Source: Eubacteriales bacterium
GTDB lineage: Bacteria; Bacillota; Clostridia; Oscillospirales; CAG-272
Length of the DNA: 36,957 nucleotides
Assembly (NCBI GenBank): GCA_045655025.1
Contig: JAZOOM010000065.1
Coordinates: 1 to 36,957, forward strand
Reading direction: 5' to 3'
The translations under genes and the position numbers were made by a program. Numbering within the stretch: the first letter of the stretch is position 1; every line of letters begins with the position of its first letter. Below the pieces are notes generated by a model. The model worked only from the letters and a program-made list of their open reading frames with translations. It did not search any database and had not been told where the DNA came from. Positions 3,205-34,295 of the stretch are shown piece by piece.

Positions 3205-3224
3205 GAATGTATCTCCTTAATCTG

Positions 3225-5159: not shown

Positions 5160-5188
5160 TTGATTATTTGGGAAATTTATGATACAAT
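5160..5188 (+). promoter_or_regulatory. Divergent sigma-A promoter for the DUF6259-like gene
   Basis: TTGATT-N17-TACAAT with TG extended -10. Confidence 0.55.
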
Positions 5189-5225
5189 AGTGGTATGGAG
5201 AATTCCCCAAAAAGGAGAACCTTAT

Positions 5226-7301: not shown

Positions 7302-7331
7302 CGTTCGACCCTGTTTTTACGACGTAATCCA

Positions 7332-7381
7332 TAGGGCATCTCTGATCATTCATTGTACGCAGAGTTTTTAGAGATGCCCTA
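7332..7381. repeat. 12-bp inverted repeat (terminator or MITE-like remnant)
   Basis: TAGGGCATCTCT ... AGAGATGCCCTA around a 26-nt spacer. Confidence 0.45.
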
Positions 7382-7409
7382 AAAAAATCCCCAAGGAAAG
7401 GAGAACGCC

Positions 7410-17645: not shown

Positions 17646-18251
17646 TCACGGGCGTTTGAAGGTCAAAAATGCCTTGATTCCACCCAAAACAAGGATGAAA
17701 ACGGCAGGATAGGGCTGCAAGCTCACAATGAACAGCAACCCCGCGGTAGCGCTGAGGCTCATGGACAACCACCCTCGGCATTTCTCCCACGTCCGCATAT
17801 CTCTCCCATACAGCCCCAATGTCAGAAGCCCAACGCCCACCAAGGCCGATACCACGACCCAATACAGCACGCGTAAATACGGGCTCACCTCTACCAAAGA
17901 CAGCAGAGAGACCGCGCGAATGCCTGCCTCTCCCCGTACGGCGAAAAAAGGGAGAAAATACAAAAGCCCCGCGCATAGATCCAGAAGCCCGTTCAACGGC
18001 GCCCGAAATCCCCGCTCGGCCTTCTTCTTCTCCTCCTCGGCAATGGTCAATACCTGATCGGTGGATAACAGCTGATCCACCGTCACCGAGAAAAAGGCGG
18101 CAATGGCCTTCAAGGAATCAATGCCCGGATACCCGCGCCCCGACTCCCATTTGGAAATCGCCGTGCGGGACACGTACAGGACCTTGGCCAATTCCTCCTG
18201 CGTCATTCCCTTTTGCCGTCTCAATTCCTGTAGCTTTTCGTGAAATTCCAT
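17646..18251 (-). CDS. XRE-family HTH regulator with C-terminal TM helices
   Basis: LQELRRQKGMTQEELAKVLYVSRTAISKWESGRGYP followed by 4 hydrophobic segments. Confidence 0.9.
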   Translation of the reverse strand: MEFHEKLQELRRQKGMTQEELAKVLYVSRTAISKWESGRGYPGIDSLKAIAAFFSVTVDQLLSTDQVLTIAEEEKKKAERGFRAPLNGLLDLCAGLLYFLPFFAVRGEAGIRAVSLLSLVEVSPYLRVLYWVVVSALVGVGLLTLGLYGRDMRTWEKCRGWLSMSLSATAGLLFIVSLQPYPAVFILVLGGIKAFLTFKRP

Positions 18252-18404: not shown

Positions 18405-18812
18405 TCAGGAGCGATATACGTACAAGTCAATGTCCAATTCTGTCCCCGTGGCAACGCAGAATTCCATTACATCCAAAGACGGCGCCAAGCAGGGTGAGAT
18501 ATCGTCCGTATAGACCGAAGGAACCACCTCCAAATAGAAGGAGACCCGATTCTCCCGACGGATCCGATTCAGCAGTTCTACCTTGTCCCGCAAAACGGAA
18601 ATCGTCTTTCGCATCTGATTCTCCACGTGAGCGTCATATTCATCACAGCGGCCAATGCTCCAGCGAGCCGCCTCCGCGGGCCGCCCGTTGCGTCGAGGCG
18701 CGCCGATCTTACAAGCCTCACCGGGTGCCAACCCCAAAAGCGCCGTTACGGCATCGGGGTCAAACTCCCCCACAATGGTAAAGTACGTATAACAGCTGTT
18801 CCGAGTATCCAT
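18405..18812 (-). CDS. DUF4279-like protein
   Basis: YFTIVGEFDPDAVTALLGL.P ... ELDIDLY pattern; ATG 18812 has the better RBS (alternative start 18830). Confidence 0.7.
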   Translation of the reverse strand: MDTRNSCYTYFTIVGEFDPDAVTALLGLAPGEACKIGAPRRNGRPAEAARWSIGRCDEYDAHVENQMRKTISVLRDKVELLNRIRRENRVSFYLEVVPSVYTDDISPCLAPSLDVMEFCVATGTELDIDLYVYRS

Positions 18813-19044
18813 GCCGAATTCCCCCTTCATGGCTTTTTATCATTACTCCATTATAGCACAGAATCACAATCCTGTAAAGAGCCTTGAAAGTTTTTTTCGA
18901 AAATTCACGGTCTGATCAGCTCACAGATTTTTTCGAATCATTCTTCCCCACATCGCCCGAGGGGACAGTTGAAAAGTTACCCAGCCTCCTGTTTGACGAA
19001 AGAAGGGGGCTGCTTCATAGAGGTAACAATTTGTGAACAAAAGT

Positions 19045-19139: not shown

Positions 19140-19475
19140 TTATTCCATTCCCCGGTAACCGTGCTTTTCAGCGTTACCCAACAAATACAAGAATGCAAAC
19201 GCGGGTATTCTCAATCATTCCTTGCCACATGCCGTATTATGAACGCCAAAATCTTTCGCCGTTTTCGTAACGATAATTGCCGCTGATGCTTCCTCGCACA
19301 ATTCAATTATTGCATCGTCATCCGGAATTGGCGCGCCCTCGCGGTACTTGACTTCGATCAAGATATTCTTAATGTATGGATAATCAACGACAATGTCAAT
19401 TTCCTTGTTCTTTTTTCCTCCGCGAAAATACCCGACCGATGTCGCAAATTGATAATAAAATGCTGCGATATCCTG
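19140..19475 (-). pseudogene. C-terminal fragment of an AAA ATPase/DUF4143-type protein with an internal stop
   Basis: GYFR..KEIDIVV..ILIEVKY (PD-(D/E)xK-like); TGA at 19215 then the frame continues LRIPAFAFLYLLG; no N-terminus. Confidence 0.65.
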
Positions 19476-19479
19476 TGGC

Positions 19480-19887
19480 GAAAAATCAACAGATGTTATT
19501 GCTTTGTGGGATACAAGAGCAACATTGTGTTGTGTATCTGAAGATGTTGTCAAACAGTTGTCATTGATTCCAACAGGTAAGGTAAGGATGAGCACCCCAT
19601 CAAGTGCTTACAAACTGGTCGATACATATTTAGTCGATTTGTTATTACCCAATGATATGGTTCAAGATGTGGTGGTCGCTCACTCGGAAATTGGTGCACA
19701 AGGTATCGGTTTGTTGGTTGGTATGGATATTATCTCGCGTGGAGATTTTCTTATTACCAATAACAAGGAAACAGTTTTTTCTTTTAGAATGCCTCCCGAG
19801 CCATTAGCTGATTTCGTGACCGGAATAAATTTTCGTAATATTATAGGCACGCCTCATGGTCAAGGGAAAAGAGGCAACCGGAAATAA
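19480..19887 (+). pseudogene. 5'-truncated retropepsin-like aspartyl protease
   Basis: ALWDTRAT (DTGA motif mutated) and LLVGMDII; no start codon or RBS. Confidence 0.65.
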
Positions 19888-20054: not shown

Positions 20055-20891
20055 TTAAATGCTTTCCTTTTTACAAATACACTGTCTCCATTCCGCAGAA
20101 TGCTCTTGAAGCTCGGTAATCGAACTGTATTGGAACCGTCTGAGGGCAGAACACGGAGAAATCGTGCCGTCACACGAAACGTAGAAAGTCGTGTTTCCCG
20201 CATCGCACTCTTTGGTGCGACACAGCTCGTAGAAACACCCCTCGGGGCAAAGGAAGTCCTGAGTTTCATCGACCCACCGTTGGATATTCTCCAATTGGGT
20301 TGGCGTTGGAATATCCGTTAATTCGCCGCGATAATTCGGCATTTTCCGCAGAATATGGATACGGTTCACCCCCCACGCCGCACACTGCTCCCGCAACCGA
20401 GGCAGGTCGTCCGCATTACTCTGCGAGGCCACCCAGTTGACCGAGCATCCGATCCCCTCGCTTTTCAACAAGTGTATCAGCTTCACGGTATCCTCATAAC
20501 CGTTTCTTGTTATTTGATGGATCTCTTTCGTGGACCCGTTCAGAGATGCATGGACCATAACGCCATTTTCTCGAAACAGAGACAGATGTTCCCGTCGAAA
20601 TCCCTTGCCCGATGTAGCAACGGTCGTGAATATCCCCCTGCGCGAGCAAAACGGGATCAGTTCGAAAAGTCCCGAATAGAGCAGTGGCTCGCCGCCAGTC
20701 AGCTGTACAAGCCCCGCTCTATTTCTCAGGAATCCATCAATGACGCGCTCTGCATAGGAAAGAGGTATATCCGTATGACCTCGCGTCACGTAGCATTGAG
20801 GGCAAAGATAGGGGCAAGCATCCGTGACTTGTATCACAAGGGTTCCACCATATTCCCTTTGATTCGTGTTCATAGATCGCGTATCAAACAT
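20055..20891 (-). CDS. Radical SAM protein with SPASM/twitch domain
   Basis: CPYLCPQC, TGGEPLL, C-terminal CDAG..FYVSCDGTISPC plus extra Cys; overlaps the DUF4176 stop by 8 nt. Confidence 0.9.
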   Translation of the reverse strand: MFDTRSMNTNQREYGGTLVIQVTDACPYLCPQCYVTRGHTDIPLSYAERVIDGFLRNRAGLVQLTGGEPLLYSGLFELIPFCSRRGIFTTVATSGKGFRREHLSLFRENGVMVHASLNGSTKEIHQITRNGYEDTVKLIHLLKSEGIGCSVNWVASQSNADDLPRLREQCAAWGVNRIHILRKMPNYRGELTDIPTPTQLENIQRWVDETQDFLCPEGCFYELCRTKECDAGNTTFYVSCDGTISPCSALRRFQYSSITELQEHSAEWRQCICKKESI

Positions 20892-21150
20892 CGTCCTGCT
20901 GCAAAAGGACTTCCTTCACAAAAGCCTCTTCTTCTGCACAGGTATAGCCGCGATAGACAACCTCTCGAATGTCCACATGATTGAAGAGAAAACGCTGATC
21001 GTCCGAAAGATGGCCTTCAGGATAGAAGCACGCGATATAGTCATATATCATCGCTTCGTTAGCAATGCGAACGCAACGTCCATAGATCATCAGGGGCTTT
21101 CTCCCGCCATTCAGTAAGACCACACTTCCAATCGGCAAATAGTCTTTCAT
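20884..21150 (-). CDS. DUF4176 protein (T7SS-associated)
   Basis: LPIGSVVLL..LMIYGR..YDYIACFYPEG..FNH.DI.EV..RGY..EE signature. Confidence 0.9.
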   Translation of the reverse strand: MKDYLPIGSVVLLNGGRKPLMIYGRCVRIANEAMIYDYIACFYPEGHLSDDQRFLFNHVDIREVVYRGYTCAEEEAFVKEVLLQQDDV

Positions 21151-21180: not shown

Positions 21181-21900
21181 CTAAAGATTATAAATCAAAG
21201 ATACAACATACTGTGTACCGCCCCTGGCAATGGCAACATAGGAATCTGATCCCAAACCTTGCGCACACATATAAAGGGCATCTCCGACATCTTTAAAAAG
21301 CACATTGACTTCTCGGTTTCCTCTTATATCGCGTATGGAAGAGACAGCCTTTTGGCCTGGAGATTGGCTACGCATATTGGTTTGCCATTCCTGAAGCCAT
21401 GCAACCGGAATCCCATATTTTTTTTGAAGTTCCCCGAAATTTTCCGCGGATCCGGCACCGACGAGGAGCTTCCCCTCCTCAGAAGTTAGCTTCACAAAAA
21501 AGGAACCCAACACATGAGGTCGGAAGGTCAGCCCGTTCATCCGGCAGATCCATTCGTCGAGATTGTCCGCCTCGTTCATCACGTGCTGAATTTCAAAAAC
21601 GTCCCCAACCTTGCGGTAACACAGGAACGAATCGTAATTCACCAGCAATCCGACCTGCCGCCCCATAATGGTTCTGCTCATAACGTACAGAGCATCCTGC
21701 CAAGCGGTAAGGATACGGGAGACGGCGTATTCAAGTCGATATCCATTTGCGCAAGGGGTAATATACCCCTTGCGCAAAAGAGACTCAATGGCATCATCAT
21801 CCTTCCGCACCATTACGTCCACAGCCGGGAGGAGGGAGATGCTCGACAGGGACAGAAGCGTAGCCAGTTCTTTTTCAGTCAATTGGGAACGCATCGCCAT
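21181..21900 (-). CDS. Hypothetical protein, possible EspG/EsaE-like T7SS chaperone or immunity protein
   Basis: 239 aa, AAGGAG RBS; LTEKEL..LL and AIESLLRKGYI..YRL..V motif. Confidence 0.65.
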   Translation of the reverse strand: MAMRSQLTEKELATLLSLSSISLLPAVDVMVRKDDDAIESLLRKGYITPCANGYRLEYAVSRILTAWQDALYVMSRTIMGRQVGLLVNYDSFLCYRKVGDVFEIQHVMNEADNLDEWICRMNGLTFRPHVLGSFFVKLTSEEGKLLVGAGSAENFGELQKKYGIPVAWLQEWQTNMRSQSPGQKAVSSIRDIRGNREVNVLFKDVGDALYMCAQGLGSDSYVAIARGGTQYVVSLIYNL

Positions 21901-21906
21901 TCTCCT

Positions 21907-23313
21907 TTACCACTTCTTGATCCAGTTAACCACGGCGGCTCCAGCAGAAGCGACCGTATTCACGACTGCCTTGGTCTGCGCGACAGCCACGTTCAGCGCA
22001 GTCTCAATAGGTGCGGCAACAACCTTGGCGGCTCCCTCAACGAAGTCGCCGACGCTGGTCGGATTCGTCATCTTCTTGATGCCCGTCTTAACGCTCTCCG
22101 CGCCGGACTTCACGGCGTTCCCCACGTCCTTGACGCAGGTCTCGCCGATGGCCTTCATATCGACCTTACCCGTCTCGTATGCCGTCGATACGGATTCCGC
22201 CACCTGTTTGGCACCCTCTACAACGTTGGGAGCAACCGTCTCAGCGAGATCGTTCCACATCCAACTCACGCCTACGGAGACGGCAACGCCAATGGCAACA
22301 CCCGCAGCCGTGGCCGCAATGGCGCCGGCTCCTGCGGCAGCAATCGCCGTAACAGCGGCGGTCGATACAATTGCCGACGCAACACCGGCTGCAGTTTCAC
22401 GAGCGATGTTGTTGGCATACTCTCCACCCGTAATCGTGCCGTTCTTGAGATCCTGATAGCCTACCAACGCCTCAATTCCGCCTCCGAGGACACCGCCGAT
22501 GACACCCGCCTTTACATACGTGCCAACCTTAATATTCTTGGCAGCCTCGGCAGCTCTGGCGGCGCGCTCAGCTCCGGTAAGACCCTTCTCCCCAAAGAGA
22601 GTGGTCTTCAAAGTAGCTTTTTTGGCAACCTCCTGCGAGATGTGGGAATTTTGCACGTTAATTTTAACGCCATCATCCAGACTATCCACACCCTTCTTCA
22701 GAGGCTCATACATCTCCTTGCTGGTGATGATTTTCTCACAATGCGCGTAGTCCCCTTGTCCGACACGCACGACGATCTTCTGTGCGTAGCCTGCGCCTCC
22801 GGCCTTCACTTCGTTAAATGCCCCGTTAATGATCACGTCGGCACCAGTTTCGGTCAGACTTTCTCCAAGAGTAGCAACCCCCTTGGTAAAGGGATTGATA
22901 TTGTGCTGATTGCGCACCATGATCTCCAAGGCAGTACCAAAGGAGTTCTTGCCGGATCCCACACGTTGGAAAGTCTCCAAACCCACCAAGGTTCGTCCGA
23001 GATCCACGCCCAGCAATCCGCCGACAAGACCGGGGAGCGTGAACTGTCCCGTCTTGCCAAGGGTCTTTTGGATATGTTCGGCATTATCCACGTCCTGATC
23101 AACGAGGGTGCGCGGGATCTTGCCTGCGCAATCATTGGTGAGATCCGTCATGTCCTTCAGCGAGAGGCGGAGTTGTTTTGTTACGGATCGGGAACCGGAC
23201 ACAGTCACTTTTTCCATGACAGCGTGGACGTTTTCCAGGTGATCACACACCTGATTCATATGTTGAAGAAACAGCTTATATTCTTCCAGTTTGATTCCGG
23301 TGTTGGTGTCCAT
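21907..23313 (-). CDS. Putative T7SS effector: WXG/LXG-like N-terminus plus Gly/Ala-rich hydrophobic (pore-forming-like) C-terminus
   Basis: Helical N-terminal ~85 aa ending TLVDQDVDNAEHI; GVIGGVLGGG and AAVTAIAAAGAGAIAATAAGVAIGVAV segments; follows the WXG100 genes. Confidence 0.7.
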   Translation of the reverse strand: MDTNTGIKLEEYKLFLQHMNQVCDHLENVHAVMEKVTVSGSRSVTKQLRLSLKDMTDLTNDCAGKIPRTLVDQDVDNAEHIQKTLGKTGQFTLPGLVGGLLGVDLGRTLVGLETFQRVGSGKNSFGTALEIMVRNQHNINPFTKGVATLGESLTETGADVIINGAFNEVKAGGAGYAQKIVVRVGQGDYAHCEKIITSKEMYEPLKKGVDSLDDGVKINVQNSHISQEVAKKATLKTTLFGEKGLTGAERAARAAEAAKNIKVGTYVKAGVIGGVLGGGIEALVGYQDLKNGTITGGEYANNIARETAAGVASAIVSTAAVTAIAAAGAGAIAATAAGVAIGVAVSVGVSWMWNDLAETVAPNVVEGAKQVAESVSTAYETGKVDMKAIGETCVKDVGNAVKSGAESVKTGIKKMTNPTSVGDFVEGAAKVVAAPIETALNVAVAQTKAVVNTVASAGAAVVNWIKKW

Positions 23314-23371: not shown

Positions 23372-23689
23372 TTACGCACTGGCGACGGCACTGAAATCCT
23401 TGATGATATGCGCCGCGTTTTCTTCGTCCTTGTACGTAATGGTATTCTTCGCAGCGAGCAAGGTCTGCGGATAGCTCTTGAGCAATTCGATCATGGGGTC
23501 GAAGAAGGAGCTCTTCAAGGCCTGGTAAACCTCTGCATACGCTTGCTCTGCGTGACCCTGCCAGATCTGATTCAGCTCGTCCATGCGCTCGCGGATATCC
23601 TCCATACCCGTGGAGAGAGACGACGAAACGGACTCAAGCTCCGAAATAGTGGCAGTAATCTGCTCTTCCGACATTAAAAGCTTATACAT
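23372..23689 (-). CDS. WXG100-family type VII secretion substrate
   Basis: 105 aa helix-turn-helix with central WQG (LNQIWQGHAEQAY). Confidence 0.88.
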   Translation of the reverse strand: MYKLLMSEEQITATISELESVSSSLSTGMEDIRERMDELNQIWQGHAEQAYAEVYQALKSSFFDPMIELLKSYPQTLLAAKNTITYKDEENAAHIIKDFSAVASA

Positions 23690-23716: not shown

Positions 23717-24016
23717 TCAAATGAGATACCGAGTGCGGATATCCGAAGCCAAAGCCTCGTCCTGCTCAATCATTTCGGTGTAGGAACGGGTGATCTCCTT
23801 CGGCATCTCGGTCAGAAGATCAAGCAGGCGCTGATAGTCAGCCTTCTTCTCCTCGTGAACCAGCTGGAATGCCTCCTGAGTCTTGGAGAGGAAGCCCTCG
23901 TTCAGGGTCTTCATCGTGCTCTCCAACTGAGTCATGGCATTTGTCACCAGCAACTTGTTCTTCTCAAGGTCCTTGCAAATCTGTTCCAATGCGGTGGCGT
24001 CGTACACAGTGTTCAT
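23717..24016 (-). CDS. WXG100-like protein (degenerate turn motif FLS)
   Basis: 99 aa helical hairpin, LNEGFLSKTQEAF at the WxG position, C-terminal MIEQDEALA export-like motif. Confidence 0.72.
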   Translation of the reverse strand: MNTVYDATALEQICKDLEKNKLLVTNAMTQLESTMKTLNEGFLSKTQEAFQLVHEEKKADYQRLLDLLTEMPKEITRSYTEMIEQDEALASDIRTRYLI

Positions 24017-24213
24017 TCGTATATCCTCTCTTTCAAAATTATGATTTGATCAACATAGCTCTGAAGCATTTTGCGCTGGATGCGCAAAGCCTCCGATATC
24101 GTGTCAGCCGTTTCGCCAAAGAGGCTGTCCCAAAGAGCGATCTCCGCATGCTTGAGCTCATCAATCGCCATCTCCAGCTCTTTGTGACAAAAGGCCAAAT
24201 ATGTCTCGTTCAT
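24013..24213 (-). CDS. Small helical hypothetical protein (66 aa), possibly a truncated WXG-like protein
   Basis: AGGAGGAG RBS before ATG 24213; ATGA overlap with the next gene; own promoter. Confidence 0.6.
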   Translation of the reverse strand: MNETYLAFCHKELEMAIDELKHAEIALWDSLFGETADTISEALRIQRKMLQSYVDQIIILKERIYE

Positions 24214-24236
24214 AGCCTCTCCTCCTTTCTGACCAC

Positions 24237-24265
24237 ATTGTATCACAAAAAACGACATTTGTCAA
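24237..24265 (-). promoter_or_regulatory. Internal sigma-A promoter for the substrate genes
   Basis: TTGACA-N17-TACAAT with TG extended -10. Confidence 0.7.
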
Positions 24266-24305: not shown

Positions 24306-24977
24306 TCAATTTCTCTTTAATTTTTGGATTCTATTGTCCAAAAAGTCCGAAAGGCACCGATCAATGTGCCGGCGATCGCCGCAACGGATGATCATATTTC
24401 CCTTGTCCGTGTCTCCCTGAAGCAGCCACGCGCCGCCGCCCCTTCTGGCAAACAGAACGCAAGCTCCGCCTTCGGCTCCCCCGTTTTCAAAGGTAAAGCG
24501 CACGAAGGGCTCCTCCTCCGAAAAGGAGAAATCCTTGGGTTCTTCATCCACGTAACAGCTGGACGCGCAGGTGCCCGCAGTGGGTACCTGTGCGGCCAGC
24601 TTCAAAAACGTACTCAAGGGAGACTCGCCCAGCTCGGCCAGCAGGAAATCGACGCGGTGGTCATCCGCGGTTCGGGTCACGATGACGTGATCCCCCTGCC
24701 CAAAAAACATGTAAACCGAGCTGTCGTGACTCTTGGCAGACGGACATTCGATCCCCACCGTGGCATCCGCATTGCTGATGATCTTCACAACGTCCGCCAC
24801 GGGATCGGACAGCCGGTACTGCTGATCCTTGGTGGGAACGATGATCCGCTTGGATCTGAGCGAACACAGAACCTCCTCGGTAAGCGCCTCGCCGTCCCGA
24901 ATATTCTTTACCAAGCTATCCCATTCCAAGCCGCTCATGCTCACGGCAATCGGATATTTCGTATCAATAACGTTCAT
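24306..24977 (-). CDS. Hypothetical protein, possible EspG/EsaE-like T7SS accessory
   Basis: 223 aa, AGGAGG RBS; VLCSLRSKRII..QYRLSDPV motif resembles 21181-21900. Confidence 0.65.
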   Translation of the reverse strand: MNVIDTKYPIAVSMSGLEWDSLVKNIRDGEALTEEVLCSLRSKRIIVPTKDQQYRLSDPVADVVKIISNADATVGIECPSAKSHDSSVYMFFGQGDHVIVTRTADDHRVDFLLAELGESPLSTFLKLAAQVPTAGTCASSCYVDEEPKDFSFSEEEPFVRFTFENGGAEGGACVLFARRGGGAWLLQGDTDKGNMIIRCGDRRHIDRCLSDFLDNRIQKLKRN

Positions 24978-25002: not shown

Positions 25003-28000
25003 TTAGTTGTCCCGATACAGCTTCGTCAATCTTGGGCCGCGCGGATCATAGAGATATCCGTAGCCGTCGGGAATACTGCGATGTGAAAGCCCCGAAACAC
25101 CCCAGCGATCCTTGGTGGTTCCTCCCAAGGCCAAGCCGTGGTTGTAGTTCAGAATACCGGGAGTAATCGAGGCTACGGTTCCCTTATCCAACAATGCGTT
25201 CGCGGAATCGGACAGGATAAAGCGTACTCGGTTATAGTTGTAAATGGAAGCGCTTGATGCAGCCTGTGAGCCCAGCACCGTCAAAATCTTTTTGCTCGCG
25301 TCACTGGCGAGGGAACGCAACATGGCAAAATTACACAGGAAAATAAAGGTATAGCCGTCACCCGTTTTGTCGTACGTATCAACCGCTTTGATACCGTCAT
25401 CCAATTCGGCGGCACCGTAGACAGAAATGTTCATGCTCGAATCCGCAAGATTCTCAAAGGGATTGTCTTGCATCAGCGGATCGACCACAATGATCTGTCG
25501 CACGTCAAAGTTCTTTTGCCTGAGAAGATAGCGAACCATCCGGTGCATAACGGTCGAATCATCGTCACCGGACACAACGAAGAACGGGGACTCGTTGAAA
25601 TGGTATCCAACAGGGGCAAAGGGATAATCCCCGTCAATGCCCACAGGAATCAGATCGTGACAGTACTCCACATCCCGGAAGGTGACCGTATCTGGGATCT
25701 GCTCGATCCGGATGAGATTCTTGATCCCGCGAACGGTCGGAACGATCTGATGAACCTTGCTCTTCAGCTCCTGATCGGACATTGTATCACCGATATGTCC
25801 CGGAAGCGCGATGGCGAACGCCTGCGTTTCCTTCGCGTAGGATCCTCGCCGGTAAAACAACATCCGACCGGGGGTGGCAACGGGAGCCTTAATGTCCCGA
25901 AGCGGGAAATAATGCTCATAGGGATCATTATCTAGCTTGAATGACATCCATGTCGTAATAGACTGACGATACGTCAACGGCAAAACACTGACCGTAGCCG
26001 TAGAAAAAACGAAGTGGACGCCCAGCGCGAAGGAGTTCTTGCTGATTATCATCAACCTGTTCGCAAGAGTCGGCATTTCCTCATAAAGGGTATCCAAACC
26101 ATCGATCATAATCACAAGCCTCGGATGGTTTAGCGAAACCTTCCTTCTGTACTCGATCTCGCGCTGCAGACGGGGAACCAAACGCTCCAAAAGCTCGTTG
26201 TCCTCGAAGGTGATTGTGTGCACAACGTTGGGAACCTGCTCAAAGGCGCGGTAGTCACTATCCTTGAGCCCGAACGAGCAGACCCAGAACTGCAATTCGT
26301 CTGTCGTATAGAGCCAGCTTCCCATGAACAGCATGCTTTGTAGCAGCGTGGTCTTTCCCATGCCGGGATTGCCGCAAACCACGACGTTACCTTGATGCAG
26401 GGAGACCTCAGCACGTTCCATTTTCGCCGCGTAGATGTTATCGCTCATACCGATTGGGATGGTCACATTGGGATACGGACATTTCGCCCTTTTGATTCCG
26501 GGCAATAGACTCCATATCATCTCATCAGGAAGCGGAGTCTCAAACACAAGCTTGGCATTGGCGTGCTTTTGATCCTTGGCCGCCTGCTTGATAGCGGCTA
26601 CCAGCGCCTCCATTTGGGTTACGGCAGGAGAATCTGTGCAGAGCACGTCTCCCCCGTAGGGCGTTTGAAACTCCACCAAACCATCCCGATCCGTCAACAA
26701 ATACCCGCGGCCTCTTTGATCGGGCTTGATATACGCCGCATCGGGCTGATCAATGATCGCCCTGGAAATGGAATCGTCACGCACCTTAAAGCAAATATCG
26801 TAACCGATGTTTGCCGCGATCTGACCTCCGATCTGAGGCGCTGGATTTTGGGCGGAAAGAAGCAGATAAATACCTCGAGAGCGTCCCTGTCTGGCAATGC
26901 AGGCGATATTATCCAGGAAGGAGCTATCGCTCTGCTTAGCATCCACGAACTCATCAACAATGACCAGCAGATAGGGCATGGCCTCCAGTGCCGTCTTGTC
27001 TTGACAGTACTTTTCCTGATAGTACTCAATCTCGTTGACCGCAATGAGTCCATCCTCCTTGGCCTTGTTTAACAGCTTCTGTCTTCGTTTGCTTTCGGCC
27101 TCCAGCATGATCAATACGCGCTTCAGCTGATAAGAGCCGTCCAGATCGGACAAAGCCCCTGCGAAGTGAGGAAGGTCCTTGAGTTGCATAGAGCTTGCAT
27201 CTCCCTTAAAGTCGATGATTGCAAAGGAGAAAAGATCCGGACTGTACTTCGTGCAGAGCAGGGCAACCATGGAAAGAAGGAACTGAGACTTACCGCTTCC
27301 CGTCATACCGGCAACGATACCGTGACCGCGGCAACCGGTAAAATCAATACTGACGATTCCGCCGGCCCCTTGCCCGATGGGCACGCTCAATCCGGCCCCC
27401 TTGCACTGCTTCCAAGCACCTGAAATGCGTGAAACGGCGGCAGAAAACGCGAACGTGAGATTCATGAACTGGAAGAGCGAAAGCTTATCGGGAAGCTGTC
27501 CACCTCTCGCCAGCAAACCGCCTCGGTCTGCGTATTGAGCAAGCAAGGGAAACAGTTGCTGAGGAATGGCCTCCTTATGCAGCCATTCGGGAACCATCTC
27601 CACGCTCCTTGCAAAGGGGAATGTCAGCTCTGCCTTCGATATAGACTCGGCATGAATGTTGCATTCGCTGAAAACGGGTGCGTAATTCACATGGCAAACG
27701 AGCAGGCATACACGGGCGGAAGCATCACAGATGACTCTGTATAGCTGATCCAACTCGGCGTTGGACAAATCCAGGCTCTGAATCAATAGGAATTGCGCGG
27801 GCGGTACCATTCGTATCCGTTCCATTGCATCCTGAGCATTCCCATAGGATACGGAGGGCGGGGGCGGAACAGGCATTCCGTTTCTCCCGTTGCCGCACAG
27901 CATGACATGAACACGCTCGGGCGCATATGCCGCCAACAGTTCGCCCACAATCCCATTCGCAACAGACTCAGCCTGCTGACCCGTTACCGAAATGCAACGG

Positions 28001-28650
28001 TATTCGTCGCAGTTCAAAAGTAGCGGCATCAACTTGATAGTCTGACTTTTCTTAATCCTGTTCAGAACATCCTCTGCCAGAGGATGATTCGACAGGTCAT
28101 TCCCGGGGATAATACCCGCAGGATTGGGTGCGTTGCGAACCGAACCGACTCGCACCGTGATATGGTCATCGTTTGTCCTCTCTCCCATCCATTCGGATCG
28201 CCAAATATGGGAGAACAACGATGTATAGTCCTTGGGAGGATAGGCGCAGTTGATCCGCCTTGCGTAATCCTCTCCTTCCGCCTCGGCTTGGGCGATCGCC
28301 TTACTCAGCTTTTTGTTGAACTCCTCGGTCATTGCCCGATTCTTTTTTGCGTTCTGATGCTTCGAATAAAAGAATTCAATCACCGAACAGATGAGAGAAG
28401 AGATCATGCCCAAGGCCATAAAGGCAATCATGTAACCCATATGAAATCCTTGACCGGGCATGATGATGGTAAAGAGAAGATAGATACCGCCTCCTAAAAC
28501 GGCAAGCTGTATGCTGGGAAACAGGACCGTCTTGAGCCAGGAAAATTTGGATTGAGTGTGAAGACCGGGCAATTCCGGCATGGTAACCGCGGCAGGGGAA
28601 GTTATATCCCGAGCACGAAAGGCAGGAATAAAGAATTCTTTTTTCATCAT
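25003..28650 (-). CDS. essC: Type VII secretion FtsK/SpoIIIE ATPase (EssC/EccC-like), without FHA domains
   Basis: 2 N-terminal TMs; D1 HGIVAGMTGSGKS, IIDFKG, VIVDEF, ARQGRSRGIYLLLSAQ; D2 GNPGMGKTT, IMIDG; degenerate D3; start 28650 or 28647. Confidence 0.88.
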   Translation of the reverse strand: MMKKEFFIPAFRARDITSPAAVTMPELPGLHTQSKFSWLKTVLFPSIQLAVLGGGIYLLFTIIMPGQGFHMGYMIAFMALGMISSLICSVIEFFYSKHQNAKKNRAMTEEFNKKLSKAIAQAEAEGEDYARRINCAYPPKDYTSLFSHIWRSEWMGERTNDDHITVRVGSVRNAPNPAGIIPGNDLSNHPLAEDVLNRIKKSQTIKLMPLLLNCDEYRCISVTGQQAESVANGIVGELLAAYAPERVHVMLCGNGRNGMPVPPPPSVSYGNAQDAMERIRMVPPAQFLLIQSLDLSNAELDQLYRVICDASARVCLLVCHVNYAPVFSECNIHAESISKAELTFPFARSVEMVPEWLHKEAIPQQLFPLLAQYADRGGLLARGGQLPDKLSLFQFMNLTFAFSAAVSRISGAWKQCKGAGLSVPIGQGAGGIVSIDFTGCRGHGIVAGMTGSGKSQFLLSMVALLCTKYSPDLFSFAIIDFKGDASSMQLKDLPHFAGALSDLDGSYQLKRVLIMLEAESKRRQKLLNKAKEDGLIAVNEIEYYQEKYCQDKTALEAMPYLLVIVDEFVDAKQSDSSFLDNIACIARQGRSRGIYLLLSAQNPAPQIGGQIAANIGYDICFKVRDDSISRAIIDQPDAAYIKPDQRGRGYLLTDRDGLVEFQTPYGGDVLCTDSPAVTQMEALVAAIKQAAKDQKHANAKLVFETPLPDEMIWSLLPGIKRAKCPYPNVTIPIGMSDNIYAAKMERAEVSLHQGNVVVCGNPGMGKTTLLQSMLFMGSWLYTTDELQFWVCSFGLKDSDYRAFEQVPNVVHTITFEDNELLERLVPRLQREIEYRRKVSLNHPRLVIMIDGLDTLYEEMPTLANRLMIISKNSFALGVHFVFSTATVSVLPLTYRQSITTWMSFKLDNDPYEHYFPLRDIKAPVATPGRMLFYRRGSYAKETQAFAIALPGHIGDTMSDQELKSKVHQIVPTVRGIKNLIRIEQIPDTVTFRDVEYCHDLIPVGIDGDYPFAPVGYHFNESPFFVVSGDDDSTVMHRMVRYLLRQKNFDVRQIIVVDPLMQDNPFENLADSSMNISVYGAAELDDGIKAVDTYDKTGDGYTFIFLCNFAMLRSLASDASKKILTVLGSQAASSASIYNYNRVRFILSDSANALLDKGTVASITPGILNYNHGLALGGTTKDRWGVSGLSHRSIPDGYGYLYDPRGPRLTKLYRDN

Positions 28651-28783
28651 GACTCCTTATAGATTCAGCGTCGATACATTAATTAAAAACAACCTTACCC
28701 TTCAGCCACTCTTGCTTCTTTCGAAAAGCGTCTTTACGGCAAACGTCCGCGTACAGCGGTTATCGCTTTCCCGGGCAAAATCC

Positions 28784-30100
28784 TCACACCCGTGTTTTTA
28801 GATTGCCGGACGTGATCCTTCGCCCAAGATCTTCTGCCTGAGCTAAGCAAATACGTAAGTTCTTCAAGGTACGGTCTTGCTTACTTTCGATATATTCGTG
28901 GTATAGTGTTCGGATTTTGGTGTAGACTGCTCCTTCCTTTTTCTTAAGTTTTCGCTTTTCTTTGACTTCGACATGTGCCAGATATCGGCAAAACCCGAAA
29001 ATCCGTTCAAACAGCTCCTTTCGAATCTCCGGGTCTACTGTCATATCCCACGGGAAGTCATTATTATATCGCAAGATTGCCTGTTTCATGACAGGATCGT
29101 CATTGAGCATCGACTGCCAGTAATTTTCAGGAAATAGCTGCTGAGCTTCTTCCTCGACAACGTTGTTTGTTTGGCCTCTGTTTGCCGTTTTCGGTGTATC
29201 GTCTATCTCATCACTTCCCTCAACTGCCTTTTCCGGAACAGCAACGACGTCTGATATGGATCGTCTTCCATACAAAGAACAATCTTCAAGCGGATTACGG
29301 TCATCGGCCATCAGACGAGGCTTGGAGTCTCCCCGCCAAAGAAGGGCGATAGAAACGTCGTCAGGGCCGCACCGTCCTAGATCAGCCACCTTGTCCGCGA
29401 AAGCCTTTTCCGACATGGTTGCCTCCTTGAGCCAATTAACAAAGGCAGGCTCCATATGCTTCTGATCCTTTTGGAAGAGCTGAGGCTTCGACACCTCCGG
29501 GCCGTCGCTCATGAGCACGATGCCCCGCAGATCCTTTACCTGGTAGCGCTTAAAGGAGAAATGCTTGAACGCGGGATTCACTAACACCTCTATGCTGGGC
29601 GTGGCGGCTCCCGGAATACTGGAGGGCGAAACGACCCCGAAACCATTCCCCGTATCAGCGGCAATGATACCGTTACCGACCTTCGCGGTGATCAGGATAT
29701 CGTCCTTTACTGCGCACGCGACCAGCGTTGTGCTGTAAGGGCATTTGCGCAGGAAATCGACGTGATAGTAATTGGTGTTTTCCCGAAAAACGGGCGGCAT
29801 GCCGTTTTTGCTCGCATACTTGTCCAAATTTTTCGAATAGTATTCGTAGACGTACGTGTAGAATATATTGCGCAACTGATCCTCCGGTGCCTCGGCAATC
29901 TCGTCGAATTTTTCGACCAAGAAGCGGGTTGCCATTATGACTGCCATTCGGGCACCGATTCCTGCGTATTTCCCTGCTTGTGTCACACCGTCTCCAACGG
30001 CAAGAGCGTATACGCCCTTGTCCGCGCGGCCATGCGCTGCGTCTTGATTTTTGCCTTCAGAACCGGGTGCCGCATAGAAAAACATCGTATATTGATCCAT
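28784..30100 (-). CDS. PP2C-like protein phosphatase (YegK/TerY-P type) with helical C-terminal extension
   Basis: NQDA, LAVGDGV, STTL, VGNG, LMSDG, DDVSI motifs. Confidence 0.85.
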   Translation of the reverse strand: MDQYTMFFYAAPGSEGKNQDAAHGRADKGVYALAVGDGVTQAGKYAGIGARMAVIMATRFLVEKFDEIAEAPEDQLRNIFYTYVYEYYSKNLDKYASKNGMPPVFRENTNYYHVDFLRKCPYSTTLVACAVKDDILITAKVGNGIIAADTGNGFGVVSPSSIPGAATPSIEVLVNPAFKHFSFKRYQVKDLRGIVLMSDGPEVSKPQLFQKDQKHMEPAFVNWLKEATMSEKAFADKVADLGRCGPDDVSIALLWRGDSKPRLMADDRNPLEDCSLYGRRSISDVVAVPEKAVEGSDEIDDTPKTANRGQTNNVVEEEAQQLFPENYWQSMLNDDPVMKQAILRYNNDFPWDMTVDPEIRKELFERIFGFCRYLAHVEVKEKRKLKKKEGAVYTKIRTLYHEYIESKQDRTLKNLRICLAQAEDLGRRITSGNLKTRV

Positions 30101-30392
30101 TTATGTCTACCTTTCTATGTGTCCGCACTCCCTGAGGAATGCGGTATTTTCTTTTTTATCTGTCTGTTGTCTGCAAAGATGGTTAAACGCGAGATGGAAT
30201 TTCATTTCCGATCCCGCGTTTCCGTTTGATTGCCTCAGTGACCAGCGAGACTCTTCTGATTCCCCTTTGCGATCGAATAGCAGTGTCCGTAAAATCGTGT
30301 TACGTCACGGTCGTATGGCCATTCATGGGAAACGCAACACGACCGAACCCACTTCCTAAAAAAGGCGGAACATAGCCCCACATCCAAATGAG

Positions 30393-31298
30393 TTACTGAT
30401 CCGGGAACAATTTGTTCCAAAAATCTTCGTCATCCTCCTCCGAATATGCTTCGTCGTCTTCGTGGAACACTTCCAACAGCCTCTCAGGGGGAGCCTCTTC
30501 TCCGCATGCAGATGTCTCCTCCAGCAGGGTAACATCAACACCTCCGTCGTCGATAACATATTGCACGGAAGCGACGTACACCTCGATGATGGAATTCAGC
30601 AGCTCGTTAACAGACTTTTCGCTATCCCCGCGGAAATCGACTCCATCCAAGGCCTGCCGTTCATCCCGGGAAACGCTCCCCAACGGGACAACGTATGTAT
30701 ACTGTTTTTTTGCTTCATTCATCTGGTAGGTGTAGAGCTCGGCCATTTCCCTGAATAATTCCGTGCCGCTATATTCCTCGCCATCGATCATGTAACGTCC
30801 GGAATCGTTTTCGCCCAGATCCGAGATCAATACAACGATCGGCTGAGAATACCCAAATCCCAAACTCTTGTAGTGCTCCTTGCGCGCCACTCCATACATG
30901 TAGGCATACAGCATGGCTTCGCCCAAGGGAGTCGTTCCAGAACACTCTCTGATAACAGGGGGGGCATGCTCCACCAAGTCAAACTCTCGCTGGAATTCCA
31001 CGCCGGTTTCGTTGTCATTGTTCTTGCCAAAGACGATCACGGACAAATCAACGAGCTTTTCCAGTTCGAGGCTCGAATTCCGCGCGTGGATGGTTTCGTA
31101 CAAGTAGGACAGCGAGCTGTTGATCTGATCGCGGTCACTGCTCAGAGAACCGCTTCCGTCCACCAAAAAAATCAAAGGAGTACGAAAGGTCGCTCCACGG
31201 GGGTCCAGCGTCTTCAGCTTCGGGATCTTCACGTCCACGTAACACTTCTTCTTGGGATCGTACCTCTTAACATCATTAAATCTCTGAATCGACTTCAT
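30393..31298 (-). CDS. TerY/YegL-like vWA domain protein
   Basis: MIDAS FLVDGSGS, GTTPLGEA, RKEHYKSLGFGYSQPIVVLISD; GGAGG RBS before ATG 31298; acidic tail. Confidence 0.87.
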   Translation of the reverse strand: MKSIQRFNDVKRYDPKKKCYVDVKIPKLKTLDPRGATFRTPLIFLVDGSGSLSSDRDQINSSLSYLYETIHARNSSLELEKLVDLSVIVFGKNNDNETGVEFQREFDLVEHAPPVIRECSGTTPLGEAMLYAYMYGVARKEHYKSLGFGYSQPIVVLISDLGENDSGRYMIDGEEYSGTELFREMAELYTYQMNEAKKQYTYVVPLGSVSRDERQALDGVDFRGDSEKSVNELLNSIIEVYVASVQYVIDDGGVDVTLLEETSACGEEAPPERLLEVFHEDDEAYSEEDDEDFWNKLFPDQ

Positions 31299-31327
31299 AT
31301 GAACCTCCTGTATATTAAAAAATGAAA

Positions 31328-32503
31328 TCAATGAAACAGCTGCCAAAGTCCAAGCAGAATTAAGGCCGCTGCAGCCACAAAACCCAAAGACAAAACGATC
31401 CATGCCCAAGTGCTTCTGCCGTCTTTCAGTTGAGTATTTTGCACTTCGGAAATCTTCGTTCCGGGAGTCTTTGTTCCGGGGTCTCGCTTAGAGCCGACGT
31501 TTTCGGCATCGGGATCCTCAAGGAACTGTTTCTTTCCTTCATCGTAAGGCTTGTCAGGAAGATACATCAATCCGTCCAAATGGCTACTATATCGACAATA
31601 GGAAAAAAACATCGTCATCCATGCTTTAGGGGTGGGAAGGGATGCGTGCGGGGTGGTCAGCAAAGCTACGAAGGTGTCTCTCATACAGCGGGGCAGGATA
31701 TACCACGCAGGATAAAAGCGGCGTTTTTTGAGGTTTCGAATAGCGCGCATAGAGCCCTTCGCAAACAAATCGTATTCTTCGCCGGTTTCCTCCAGATCGT
31801 ATTCGCGTATACGCGCAAGATCCGAACGCAAGCTTTCCGTGCCCGTCAGGATTTGCAAAAGCATCATGGCCAAACCGTAGTTCTCGCTTTCCTCATCCGG
31901 TACGAATCCGGGCTCGATGCTGTCTCTGTTGGAGTACTCCGGGCGCGGCGGCTGAGAGTAGCTGCCACGAACCGAAAAGCCGTCCAGATCAATCGGATAA
32001 ACAAGCCCTTTTTGGGTTACAAAAAAATTATCCGGCTTCACGTCGCTCACCATCAGCTCATGTTGGTGCAGTTGATCGAAGCACGTGCACAGGGAATGAC
32101 AAACACGGAGCATCTTACGATAGGTATCCTCGCCAAACCATTCGTCGCAGTTCGTTTGAATGATGAGATGGTTCAGGGAACGATCGTCCGAGCAATCCCT
32201 CATGATAAAGCCACACCATGCGCTTTCGCTCCTGCTTGCATCGCTATACACGCAATCCATCGGGAAGGCCTTAGCCAGATACTTCAGATTACTACTCTGC
32301 TCAAGCTTCCGGCGGATATCCATCAAGCCATCGACCTTTGTCCTGTTTTCGGGCGTATTGGCCATGAATTTTACCAGAAGGTTGGAAGGGCTGTCAACCT
32401 TGTGAATCGCTTGCCTTTGAGAATTCCCCATGCCTCTGTCACTTTCATCCCGAACCGTATAAGTCAGCTCACCCATACGACAAAACACTGATTTTTGCAA
32501 CAT
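31328..32503 (-). CDS. YegI-like Ser/Thr protein kinase with C-terminal TM anchor
   Basis: GMG loop, LLVKF, LH..ELMVSDVKPDNFFV, IDLDG, RPEY; terminal TM helix; ATG 32503 behind AGGAGG (alternative GTG 32509). Confidence 0.85.
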   Translation of the reverse strand: MLQKSVFCRMGELTYTVRDESDRGMGNSQRQAIHKVDSPSNLLVKFMANTPENRTKVDGLMDIRRKLEQSSNLKYLAKAFPMDCVYSDASRSESAWCGFIMRDCSDDRSLNHLIIQTNCDEWFGEDTYRKMLRVCHSLCTCFDQLHQHELMVSDVKPDNFFVTQKGLVYPIDLDGFSVRGSYSQPPRPEYSNRDSIEPGFVPDEESENYGLAMMLLQILTGTESLRSDLARIREYDLEETGEEYDLFAKGSMRAIRNLKKRRFYPAWYILPRCMRDTFVALLTTPHASLPTPKAWMTMFFSYCRYSSHLDGLMYLPDKPYDEGKKQFLEDPDAENVGSKRDPGTKTPGTKISEVQNTQLKDGRSTWAWIVLSLGFVAAAALILLGLWQLFH

Positions 32504-32542
32504 CTTCACCTCCTAACGAACTAAATAACACCAAATTATAAT

Positions 32543-33466
32543 TTAATCAAAGAGCTTTTCGAAGGTTATCTCATCCTGCTCGACCACATCATTCCATTCG
32601 CTTAGCAGGAATAGCCTTTGAACATCGTTCAATTCGGCCACATTGATCAGCATCCCACTCGTTGTAACCAGAACAGGGATCATATTCGTGCAGTTCAGCA
32701 ATGAATCTATATTGTTGCTGATGAAATAATTCTTTTTGCTTTCTATCGGCGCACCCCCATTTGGGACACAATCACAAGCAGCCTCTATGAACTCGTTTGG
32801 CTCTCTCTGAACAGAGGTCACCGTTATCCTGCCGCATTCCTTTAGATTGACCATCTCCTGCACAAACCGTCTAATCTCAACAGATCGGGTCAAGTCTTCA
32901 TTGCGAATCTGCTCGCTGAGGTAAAAATTCACCGGAGCTCCGTTCATTTTTTTGAGCCGATAACCCAAAGCCAGCAGACGCCTGCGAGTTTTATCTGCGT
33001 CCGCATCCTTGCGGAAAGAAAGCAAATCCAAAAAGACGTTTCCGTCTCGAAGTGTCTCTGTTTTCACAATGATCTGCTCTAATTCTCCATTCACAAGGAT
33101 GCTCCGTTTTCTCAACAAAGCCTCCGTTAAGGTTGTAGCCGGGGGCAGTTTTTCACCCAAAATATAATCCAGATAATCGGATTCAAAAATCATGAAATTC
33201 TGACTATACAGAACCTCCTTGACAGCCGGATCATTGGTGGCATAATAGTCATAGAGCGCAGCCATAGAGAGAATGTTCGTAAACCGATACTCCCCCTTTA
33301 CATTTTCGGTGCTGCTCAAGTTTTGGTTTTCCATGTTGCTCAACGTCTGTCTGGTAATTCCTAATGCCTTTGAAATATCTTCCTGAGATTTTCCCAGGCC
33401 GCTACGTATCTTGCCGATCTTTTCGACAAAATCTTCAATAAATAGTTGTTGTGTAATTGTTGACAT
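32543..33466 (-). CDS. XRE-family HTH protein with large uncharacterised C-terminal domain
   Basis: IRSGLGKSQEDISKALGITRQTLSNMEN; AGGAGG RBS. Confidence 0.8.
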   Translation of the reverse strand: MSTITQQLFIEDFVEKIGKIRSGLGKSQEDISKALGITRQTLSNMENQNLSSTENVKGEYRFTNILSMAALYDYYATNDPAVKEVLYSQNFMIFESDYLDYILGEKLPPATTLTEALLRKRSILVNGELEQIIVKTETLRDGNVFLDLLSFRKDADADKTRRRLLALGYRLKKMNGAPVNFYLSEQIRNEDLTRSVEIRRFVQEMVNLKECGRITVTSVQREPNEFIEAACDCVPNGGAPIESKKNYFISNNIDSLLNCTNMIPVLVTTSGMLINVAELNDVQRLFLLSEWNDVVEQDEITFEKLFD

Positions 33467-34206: not shown

Positions 34207-34295
34207 TGGCGGAGGGAAAGGGATTCGAACCCTTGTGGGCGGGTGCCCAAACGGTTTTCAAGACCGCCTCGTTATGACCACTTCGATATCCCTCC
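34207..34295 (-). tRNA. tRNA-Ser(TGA)
   Basis: GGAGGGA acceptor, GCGGT-CTTGAAA-ACCGT anticodon arm, long variable arm, GGTTCGAATCC, GCCA end; 89 nt. Confidence 0.96.

Follow-up and report, generated by a model that had tools for sequence, protein, structure and literature searches.

A compact gene cassette on a lower-GC island

The window, i.e., the whole stretch of 36,957 nucleotides that was analysed, belongs to a gut Clostridia metagenome-assembled genome (MAG), whose 454 contigs sum to 2.84 Mb at a completeness of 74%, and contains a rare gene cassette of about 12-13 kb that is encoded entirely on the minus strand, as are the other features described below. The cassette reads HTH regulator, kinase, vWA protein, PP2C phosphatase, EssC-like ATPase, EspG-like protein, small helical protein, two WXG100 proteins and a C-terminally anchored protein. 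When 13 window proteins were compared by blastp with the six-frame ORFs of 12 loci, the same order was recovered in two more metagenomic lineages, L015 (EssC 42% identical) and L018 (29%); the L015 element also exists as near-identical copies in L014 and L016. Since the full cassette is known in these three independent lineages only, the conservation of gene order could in part be due to a single mobile element from which all three descend. Left out of the comparisons were L011-L013, L023 and L024, whose kinase matches had E-values of 3e-5 or worse, and L021 and L022, which carry distant kinases without Pfam annotation.

The GC content drops from ~0.60 at 1-15 kb to 0.42-0.54 at 18-36 kb, a tRNA-Ser(tga) identified by ARAGORN (34207..34295) adjoins the upstream edge of the lower-GC part, and the N-terminal 420 aa of the EssC-like protein were found in none when 400 further genomes from the order were searched, which together give the region the character of an island. 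A tblastn search of plasmids with the full EssC protein returned 832 records, none with at least 60% identity (the best 25 of the 832 were all actinobacterial, and nine of these 25 are annotated as EccCa or EccCb), and zero matches were obtained there with the PP2C protein or the EssC N-terminus as queries. A search for related loci in genome contigs with the single EssC protein gave 31 pattern matches, of which 0 were confirmed. The sequencing runs listed as sharing words were two gut-metagenome DNA runs, with small shares (0.11 and 0.09), and included no RNA run.

The cassette is headed by an XRE-type HTH_3 regulator (32543..33466; 307 aa, Pfam HTH_3 E 1e-05) with an uncharacterised C-terminal domain of ~250 aa; homologues of the regulator lie directly upstream of the kinase gene in L008 and L014-L018 (blastp E 1.7e-25 to 4.5e-04). 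The ATPase gene is followed by a gene for a putative EspG-like chaperone (24306..24977; 223 aa, no Pfam match), which has homologues at the corresponding place in L015 and L018. An AF2 model built from three homologues reached moderate confidence (pLDDT 63.9), and all 16 of the 16 Foldseek PDB matches listed to rank 17 were EspG1, EspG3 or EspG5 (E 3.7e-05 to 2.8e-03, TM about 0.5); at the level of the predicted model, the EspG-like fold of this protein is thus shown. Next comes a small ORF (24013..24258; 81 aa, no Pfam match) that we read from its sequence as a probable helical hairpin rather than a ubiquitin-like protein, and which has no detectable similarity to the small ORFs at the same place in L015 and L018. 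The two WXG100 proteins, A (23717..24016; 99 aa) and B (23372..23689; 105 aa), match the Pfam WXG100 family just under the cut-off (8.8e-06) and over it (3.1e-08), respectively, with A also matching TIGR03930 at 4.1e-07; homologues of both are present in L015, L018 and L020.

Directly after the WXG100 pair lies the conserved C-terminally anchored protein (21907..23313; 468 aa, no Pfam match), with an N-terminal helical region, a Gly/Ala-rich hydrophobic stretch (residues 307-352) and TM-like segments. Its homologues in L015 (42% identity) and L018 (26%), at the same position, stop just past this stretch, whereas the window copy has a tail of a further 110 aa. The protein could belong to the membrane machinery or be a conserved substrate; its AF2 model from four sequences was unusable (pLDDT 38.8), and the best Atlas score of 0.87 gave no lead. 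The 239-aa protein encoded next (21181..21900, no Pfam match) is possibly a second EsaE/EspG-like chaperone, a lead that comes from its Atlas look-alike clusters (0.89-0.95), in which DUF5081 accounts for 23% of members, YfjC_N/C for ~54% and ESX-1_EspG for 23%. It is not similar to the 223-aa protein in BLASTP (E 1.1). The adjacent gene (20884..21150; 88 aa) encodes a member of the T7SS-associated accessory family DUF4176 (Pfam 5e-27), which is reportedly linked to the stabilisation of an LXG toxin (PMC12482557).

An FHA-less EssC-like ATPase and the components of T7SSb

The central gene of the cassette (25003..28650) encodes an EssC/EccC-like T7SS ATPase of 1215 aa with FtsK_SpoIIIE and AAA families in Pfam, which matches TIGR03928 (EssC) at 1.8e-93 and 314 bits, under the 778-bit cut-off, TIGR03925 (EccCb) at 2.9e-50 and TIGR03924 (EccCa) at 2.5e-67. 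A reading of the locus from its sequence alone had described the protein as beginning directly with a Pro-rich, EccCa-like segment and two TM helices. The two TM segments are indeed there (residues 41-67 and 69-96, with 40 residues ahead of the first), while "Pro-rich" is a generous term for four prolines in the first 40 residues, and the EccCa-like nature of the N-terminus is unsupported by the HMMs because the EccCa model covers residues 408-665 only. The same reading was right in noting the lack of FHA domains (none in Pfam at E<=0.01) and of a Walker A motif in the third ATPase domain. The pattern G....GK[ST] occurs at two sites only, 448 (GMTGSGKS) and 760 (GNPGMGKT), corresponding to D1 and D2, and VSGDDDSTV stands at the expected P-loop position of D3 (1026). 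This loss is shared with P0003, P0004 and L015, whereas the D3 Walker A is present in L018 and P0115.

In phylogenetic trees (FastTree, 41 rows; IQ-TREE quick, 28 rows) the ATPase branches off deeply as a clade of its own, separated from 23 other rows with an SH-aLRT of 100 in IQ-TREE. It falls outside the ATPases of the c-type, i.e., those from T7SSc-like loci recognised by gene content alone and not by published TscC accessions: forcing the union of the two made the likelihood worse by 35.05 lnL (p-AU 0.008), with the c-type group of this test named post hoc, after a first tree.

None of the other T7SSb components was detected on the island, where the sequence-only reading had noted the lack of EssA, EssB, EsaA and EsaB, or across the 74%-complete genome. 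YukC/EssB (PF10140, TIGR03926) had no match in the whole assembly, and none of 60 further genomes from the family of this MAG reached the YukC cut-off. A six-frame search of the genome for YukD (PF08817) was negative at E<=1, the EsaA N-terminus was matched once, weakly and on a different contig (E 0.0017; 18.5 bits, where the cut-off is 122 bits), and all matches to EssA in the assembly were below threshold and interrupted by stop codons. Neither a second EssC-like gene nor a complete T7SSb elsewhere that could supply these parts was found in the assembly. At 74% completeness of the genome, the absence of T7SSb parts is provisional; that the T7SS arrangement found here, in which no EssB/YukC, EsaA, EssA, EsaB/YukD or FHA-bearing EssC was detected, differs from T7SSb is supported, and in this the proposal of a distinct arrangement stands.

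A YegI-type kinase with vWA and phosphatase partners

Upstream of the ATPase, three mutually adjacent genes encode a kinase, a vWA protein and a phosphatase. The first is a tail-anchored YegI-type Ser/Thr kinase (31328..32509; 393 aa from a GTG, or 391 aa from the alternative ATG at 32503 that was chosen in the sequence-only reading). It matches Pfam Pkinase weakly (E 0.0046), its family aligns with E. coli YegI in hhalign (Prob 97.1, E 4.8e-11), and K45, D154, K156, N159, D172 and D174 (391-aa numbering) are invariant in 9/9 family members, with the motif SDiKPdN aligned to the HRD loop of Nek7 (HRDIKPAN). Both the YegI-like nature of the protein and the retention of its catalytic K/D/N/D residues are therefore borne out, and judged by these intact motifs the kinase is apparently active. 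A protein homologue search with the kinase returned itself alone, one with the kinase-family profile returned three proteins, and PADLOC gave weak matches to the PD-T4-6 and MkoA kinases only.

The second gene encodes a vWA protein of the YegL type whose metal-binding MIDAS motif is intact (30393..31298, with a likely ATG start at 31298; the ORF extends to 31409 from a TTG). It matches Pfam VWA weakly (E 0.0064) and E. coli YegL in hhalign (Prob 98.4, E 4.2e-15), and 6/6 homologues share its MIDAS residues DxSxS, T and D. The third encodes a PP2C-type (PPM) phosphatase with a C-terminal extension (28784..30100; 438 aa, Pfam PP2C_2 8e-16), in which the motifs GQDA, DGV, GNG, MSDG and DDV are kept in 5/5 homologues. 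It is PP2C-type like PphC, to which its BLASTP match is not significant (E 0.057). PADLOC found no TerY-P-type match for the vWA or PP2C protein. In gene content the triad resembles the yegL-pphC-yegI operon of E. coli, whose YegI is likewise membrane-bound (10.1101/819920); kinase and vWA protein are homologous to their E. coli counterparts. YegI differs in that it has two TMs and its C-terminal part is cytosolic, as opposed to the one C-terminal TM of the cassette kinase, and the E. coli triad differs from that of the cassette, which adjoins a secretion ATPase and WXG100 genes.

The (HTH-)kinase-vWA-PP2C module is portable, since it is also found without a T7SS: in L008 and L009 the triad is present and EssC is absent nearby, the L008 kinase is also tail-anchored, and the L009 genome bin contains no EssC-like gene, with FtsK-like matches only (best E 4e-18). 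These loci leave a T7SS-specific role of the kinase unsupported. As the triad can exist by itself, its co-location with the T7SS might reflect the hitch-hiking of two conflict modules, i.e., an unrelated TerY-P-like stress or defence module sharing the island with a minimal T7SS while being functionally uncoupled from it. TerY-P triads are described as phosphorylation switches that act stand-alone or as add-on conflict modules (PMC10542128). We nevertheless regard an uncoupled triad as improbable: order, strand and tight spacing are shared by three lineages with EssC at 29-42% identity, a different ATPase/WXG100 locus, L010, in which the FtsK-type ATPase is split, also carries a (distant) kinase and a vWA gene, and T7SSc represents the same pairing made from other protein lineages.

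The sequence-only reading had gone further and suggested that the kinase stands in for EssB, with which it was said to share its domain topology. EssB has an extracellular domain and is a catalytically dead scaffold. The cassette kinase resembles EssB/YukC of T7SSb in its cytoplasmic kinase-fold domain, in the single TM tether and in its location beside the EssC ATPase, but keeps the K/D/N/D residues, has no sequence similarity to EssB/YukC in Pfam, NCBIfam or PDB-sequence searches and has no ectodomain at all: the TM-like segment (366-393) forms its last 28 residues, with 0 residues beyond. A topology shared with EssB is thus not supported. As a structural core subunit, replacing EssB in the membrane complex whether or not its activity is used, the kinase would fit the failure to detect EssB in genome and family, and it is kept beside EssC in 3/3 full cassettes. 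The same topological parallel is already in print for TscD of T7SSc, described as similar to EssB in topology with, unlike EssB, a conserved kinase active site (PMC11217815), so that the idea itself is not new. Against such a substitution, which we consider unlikely, stand the missing ectodomain and sequence relation, the occurrence of the same tail-anchored kinase family with vWA and PP2C but without EssC in L008, the L009 bin that lacks any EssC-like gene, and the fact that the constant partner of the kinase is a phosphatase, which argues for signalling. A predicted complex of the kinase family with EssC residues 1-420 scored 0.00 against a mark of 0.32, an uncontrolled result that carries no weight either way. 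Given the conserved cassette, the YegI/YegL homology, the separate ATPase clade and the triads without EssC, we take the kinase to belong to a portable switch, and not to be a shown replacement of EssB.

Parallels with T7SSc and a proposed phospho-switch

T7SSc (TscA-TscG), known from Paenibacillus, B. anthracis and Brevibacillus, comprises an FHA-less ATPase, a membrane Ser/Thr kinase, a vWA protein, a PPM phosphatase and an EspG-like chaperone, and its regulation by phosphorylation has already been proposed (Garrett, Higginson & Palmer 2024, PMC11217815). The cassette shares with it the FHA-less membrane ATPase, the active-site-conserved membrane Ser/Thr kinase, the vWA, PPM phosphatase, EspG-like and WXG100 proteins, and the lack of EssA, EssB and EsaA. 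The region is probably the core of a compact, horizontally acquired T7SS cassette whose design parallels that of the published T7SSc.

This equal set of functions would also be expected of a divergent T7SSc with orthologous TscC, TscD, TscE, TscF and TscG, an explanation that appears quite unlikely to us when the proteins are compared individually. The ATPase is separate in the tree, as described above, and no relationship of the kinase and vWA protein to their counterparts in c-type loci (set by gene content) was detected: hhalign gave Prob 0.4, 0.1 and 1.6 against the c-type kinases, compared to 97.1 for YegI, and 10.5, 9.4 and 27 against the c-type vWA proteins, compared to 98.4 for YegL. 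In addition, no YukD-like TscB was detected here, whereas the c-type loci L050 and L052 carry a YukD-like gene; the cassette has two WXG100 genes instead of one, a kinase without ectodomain, an additional HTH regulator and conserved C-terminally anchored protein, and a host among gut Clostridia MAGs. New here, as judged from the sequence comparisons, would be a T7SSc-like plan built from different, unrelated kinase and vWA lineages. Tentatively, the cassette could represent an unnamed eleventh T7SS arrangement that travels between gut Clostridia and has reached the T7SSc design independently, combining an FHA-less ATPase of its own deep clade with a YegI/PphC/YegL switch and no ubiquitin-like subunit.

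As to function, we favour a portable phospho-switch that was likely recruited to the T7SS and would control secretion, with the kinase as one of its parts. Kinase and phosphatase may turn secretion on and off through reversible Ser/Thr phosphorylation, with the kinase anchored in the membrane next to the ATPase and acting as a regulator, not as a dead scaffold like EssB; the phosphorylated protein would belong to the cassette and could be its vWA protein, ATPase, chaperone or regulator. The lack of a phospho-reader (FHA) in the cassette by Pfam counts against such a switch.

To our knowledge, genomics is the sole source of descriptions of T7SS variants other than a and b, and our limited literature search found no experimental work on T7SSc. 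A second build of this plan from non-orthologous parts would argue by convergence that reversible phosphorylation is an integral feature of FHA-less T7SS, and would give the YegI/PphC/YegL (TerY-P) triad, which is poorly understood, a concrete output. If two unrelated triads were indeed captured by two unrelated FHA-less ATPases, the triad could be of general use in controlling the ATPases of membrane export, which would also hint at the function of the orphan YegI triad of E. coli. With ~10 genes and no ubiquitin-like subunit, the cassette would be a small system to reconstitute.

A further parallel exists with T7SSh, which as described (PMC11217815) differs from the cassette by a YukD-like TshB, a location beside Tad pilus genes (no Tad-type family was found in Pfam scans of the window proteins searched) and the lack of a vWA protein or PPM phosphatase. 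[quoted passage not shown]

Gene order and missing T7SSb parts

The genes of interest all lie on the minus strand at about 20.9-33.5 kb of the window, and were assigned to families from Pfam and NCBIfam matches. An HTH_3 regulator (32543-33466) comes first in transcription order, followed by a kinase with a weak Pkinase match (31328-32509), a vWA-like protein (30393-31298, or to 31409 with an upstream TTG start), a PP2C_2 phosphatase (28784-30100), an FtsK/EssC-like ATPase of 1215 aa (25003-28650), a 223-aa and an 81-aa protein, both without family match, WXG100 proteins A (23717-24016) and B (23372-23689), a 468-aa protein with a Gly/Ala-rich hydrophobic stretch, a 239-aa protein without family match, a DUF4176 protein (20884-21150) and, last, at the cassette's downstream edge, a radical-SAM/SPASM enzyme (20055-20891), whose reading frame overlaps the DUF4176 gene at the latter's end. 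The genes around the vWA-PP2C junction are tightly packed; the 292-bp gap between these two (30101-30392), without a minus-strand ORF of at least 70 aa, could be a candidate site of an internal promoter or regulatory RNA. GC content drops from about 0.60 over the leftmost 15 kb, which encode GH38 and GH127 glycosidases, to 0.42-0.54 across the island, and a tRNA-Ser lies at 34207-34295. The low-GC far edge carries genes for an HTH_3 membrane protein (17646-18251), a DUF4279 protein (18405-18830) and a DUF4143 fragment (19215-19595), all on the minus strand. No integrase was seen within the window.

The sequence-only reading had described an ATPase without FHA domains, with two TM-like segments and a third ATPase domain (D3) devoid of Walker A, and this description was confirmed. 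No FHA family match was found in a Pfam scan of the protein, two hydrophobic segments (41-67 and 69-96) are preceded by 40 residues, and P-loops occur at residues 448 and 760 only, with VSGDDDSTV at residue 1026 (about 1020-1035), where the D3 P-loop belongs. Among six aligned clade members (A4), this P-loop (GxxxxGK[ST]) is kept in the protein of the comparison locus L018 (GTAQSGKS) and in the homologue P0115, but is missing from the window, P0003, P0004 and L015, which form one sub-branch, indicating that D3 degenerated recently within the clade.

The absence of EssB, YukD, EssA and EsaA from the island also held in a search of the whole assembly, a MAG of 2.84 Mb in 454 contigs (completeness 74%): YukC/EssB and YukD found no match, the EsaA and EssA models gave weak sub-threshold matches only, and no second EssC-like gene was found. 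A T7SSb hidden in the unassembled quarter of the genome could still supply these parts, but is unlikely, since the YukC cut-off was reached in none of 60 other genomes of the same family, with a sub-threshold match in one.

A membrane kinase within a probable phospho-switch triad

The kinase is very rare, with 152 proteins at E<=0.001 among 1.84 billion representatives (HMMER), 11 at E<=1e-10 and 5 at E<=1e-30, itself included. As the sequence-only reading had held, its catalytic residues are kept: K45, S153, D154, K156, N159, D172, D174 and G175 are invariant in nine family members, and the family's SDiKPdN aligns with HRDIKPAN of Nek7. Most members end in a single terminal TM followed by 0-41 residues, while the kinases of L018 and P0128 carry 174 extra residues with MORN repeats beyond it. 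The proposal that this kinase might stand in for the EssB pseudokinase fared less well, as no link of the family to EssB/YukC came from Pfam, NCBIfam or a PDB-sequence profile search.

In profile comparisons with E. coli K-12 references (locus L027), the kinase family matched YegI (Prob 97.1, E 4.8e-11, 271 columns) and the vWA family YegL (Prob 98.4, E 4.2e-15); the similarity of the PP2C to PphC remained below significance in BLASTP. The full MIDAS motif is kept in 6/6 vWA family members and the metal-binding motifs of the PP2C in 5/5. A yegL-pphC-yegI operon and a membrane location of YegI are reported in 10.1101/819920, and PMC10542128 presents TerY-P triads as predicted phosphorylation switches joined to various conflict systems. 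A better explanation than EssB replacement is that the kinase forms the membrane-bound part of a YegI/PphC/YegL-type phospho-switch, which this T7SS lineage would have recruited.

The triad also occurs without EssC within 10 kb in two loci of Clostridiales MAGs, with the HTH gene (L008) or without it (L009). No EssC-like gene was found in the L009 bin, where FtsK-like matches rank highest (E 4e-18); the 8.8-Mb bin of L008 has EssC genes of FHA length on other contigs. In L008 (12278-14368, plus strand) a C-terminal DUF6273 domain is fused to the phosphatase.

Conservation and occurrence of the cassette

Scans seeded with the kinase alignment yielded 6 genomic and 11 metagenomic loci, and 13 window proteins were compared by blastp with six-frame ORFs from 12 of them. 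The complete order of HTH, kinase, vWA, PP2C, EssC, 223-aa homologue, small ORF, WXG-A, WXG-B and 468-aa homologue was recovered in L015 and L018. By its gene neighborhoods, the triad thus appears repeatedly joined to this ATPase despite existing without EssC elsewhere. The 468-aa protein has homologues at the corresponding place in L015, L018 and L020, and these stop right after the hydrophobic stretch. A model of the 223-aa protein from three homologues (pLDDT 63.9) retrieved EspG1, EspG3 or EspG5 in 16/16 of the Foldseek PDB matches listed to rank 17 (E 3.7e-05 to 2.8e-03), and its predicted fold matches EspG. For the 239-aa protein, Atlas look-alikes in DUF5081, YfjC and EspG clusters provide a lead only, and from its sequence we read the 81-aa ORF as probably helical and not ubiquitin-like. 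A Lachnospiraceae MAG (L010) encodes a split FtsK-type ATPase, a WXG100 protein and a distant kinase and vWA before the contig ends.

Among 5.8 billion clustered proteins the ATPase has just three close relatives, P0003 (90%), P0004 (41%) and the partial P0005 (46%); among the matches listed beyond these, identity is at most 35%, those above 30% cover less than a quarter of the query, and matches on the full-length scale reach 22-29%. Its N-terminal 420 residues had no match in 400 other genomes of the order. In a phylum sample of 401 genomes, 18 (the window's included) had an EssC match at E<=1e-60, and outside the window's genome none reached the N-terminal part, all starting at model position 228 at least. 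Given this scarcity the cassette is sporadic in its distribution, as a mobile island would be. The metagenome contigs L014 and L016 match parts of the element on L015, also a metagenome contig, at 99.97-100% nucleotide identity. Across about 410 bp, L014 runs from the element's end into its start, consistent with a circular or tandemly repeated unit of about 12.6 kb; L016, however, has another upstream flank. In L018 (a 52.8-kb metagenome contig), a 1754-aa DEAD-box helicase with a MrfA-type Zn-binding domain (MZB; 2864-8128, plus strand) lies directly upstream of the HTH-kinase-vWA-PP2C-EssC cassette.

Comparison with T7SSc and other FHA-less systems

The sequence-only reading was right to suggest a distinct T7SS subtype, but the concept itself had already been published for other organisms: Garrett, Higginson and Palmer (2024; PMC11217815) described T7SSc-j, with T7SSc comprising TscA (WXG100), TscB (YukD-like), TscC (FHA-less ATPase), TscD (membrane kinase), TscE (vWA), TscF (PPM phosphatase) and TscG (EspG-like), and proposed regulation by phosphorylation. 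In their account TscD resembles EssB in topology but, unlike it, retains the kinase active site. We compared the surroundings of FHA-less EssC genes of other families in the phylum sample by Pfam content, by which L048-L052 were labelled c-type. L051 and L052 encode vWA, PP2C, YukD, EssC (1342-1367 aa), WXG100 and Pkinase+TPR; L048 and L049 EssC, WXG100, a 702-709-aa protein, vWA and PP2C; and L050 Pkinase, YukD, vWA and EssC.

ATPase trees from FastTree (41 rows) and IQ-TREE in quick mode (LG+C20 PMSF; 28 rows, 13 left out) agree. Though unrooted and with long branches, they place the window ATPase in a clade of its own (SH-aLRT 98-100) with P0115 as sister (100), both split off from the remaining 23 rows (100); a separate clade holds the c-type ATPases (100). 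Forcing the window and c-type groups together, a grouping chosen once the first tree had been seen, costs 35.05 log-likelihood units (p-AU 0.008). Profile comparisons of the window kinase family gave Prob 0.4 and 0.1 with individual c-type kinases and 1.6 with a profile of them; those of the vWA family with c-type vWA gave 10.5, 9.4 and 27. The c-type families themselves show no significant likeness to YegL (Prob 47) or YegI (Prob 0.8). Beyond the kinase domain all three groups share a P-[TS]-[AF]-x-x-W motif, which has no statistical weight and at most hints at a very distant common ancestry.

Apparently new is a conserved cassette of ten genes from gut-type Clostridia which reproduces the T7SSc plan but, relative to a c-type set defined by gene content, has an own-clade ATPase and a non-orthologous kinase and vWA; it is without a detectable ubiquitin-like subunit, unlike T7SSc with its TscB, and has two WXG100 genes, an HTH regulator of its own and a conserved protein with a C-terminal anchor.

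Among the other FHA-less loci, L053 (DUF5050, YukD, EssC, two WXG100) fits T7SSg by Pfam content. Two further loci from Bacillota pair an FHA-less EssC with other signalling partners: L055 has a Pkinase with zinc ribbons and YukD, and L054 a TPR-vWA protein, zinc-ribbon proteins and a fusion of WXG100 with lysozyme.
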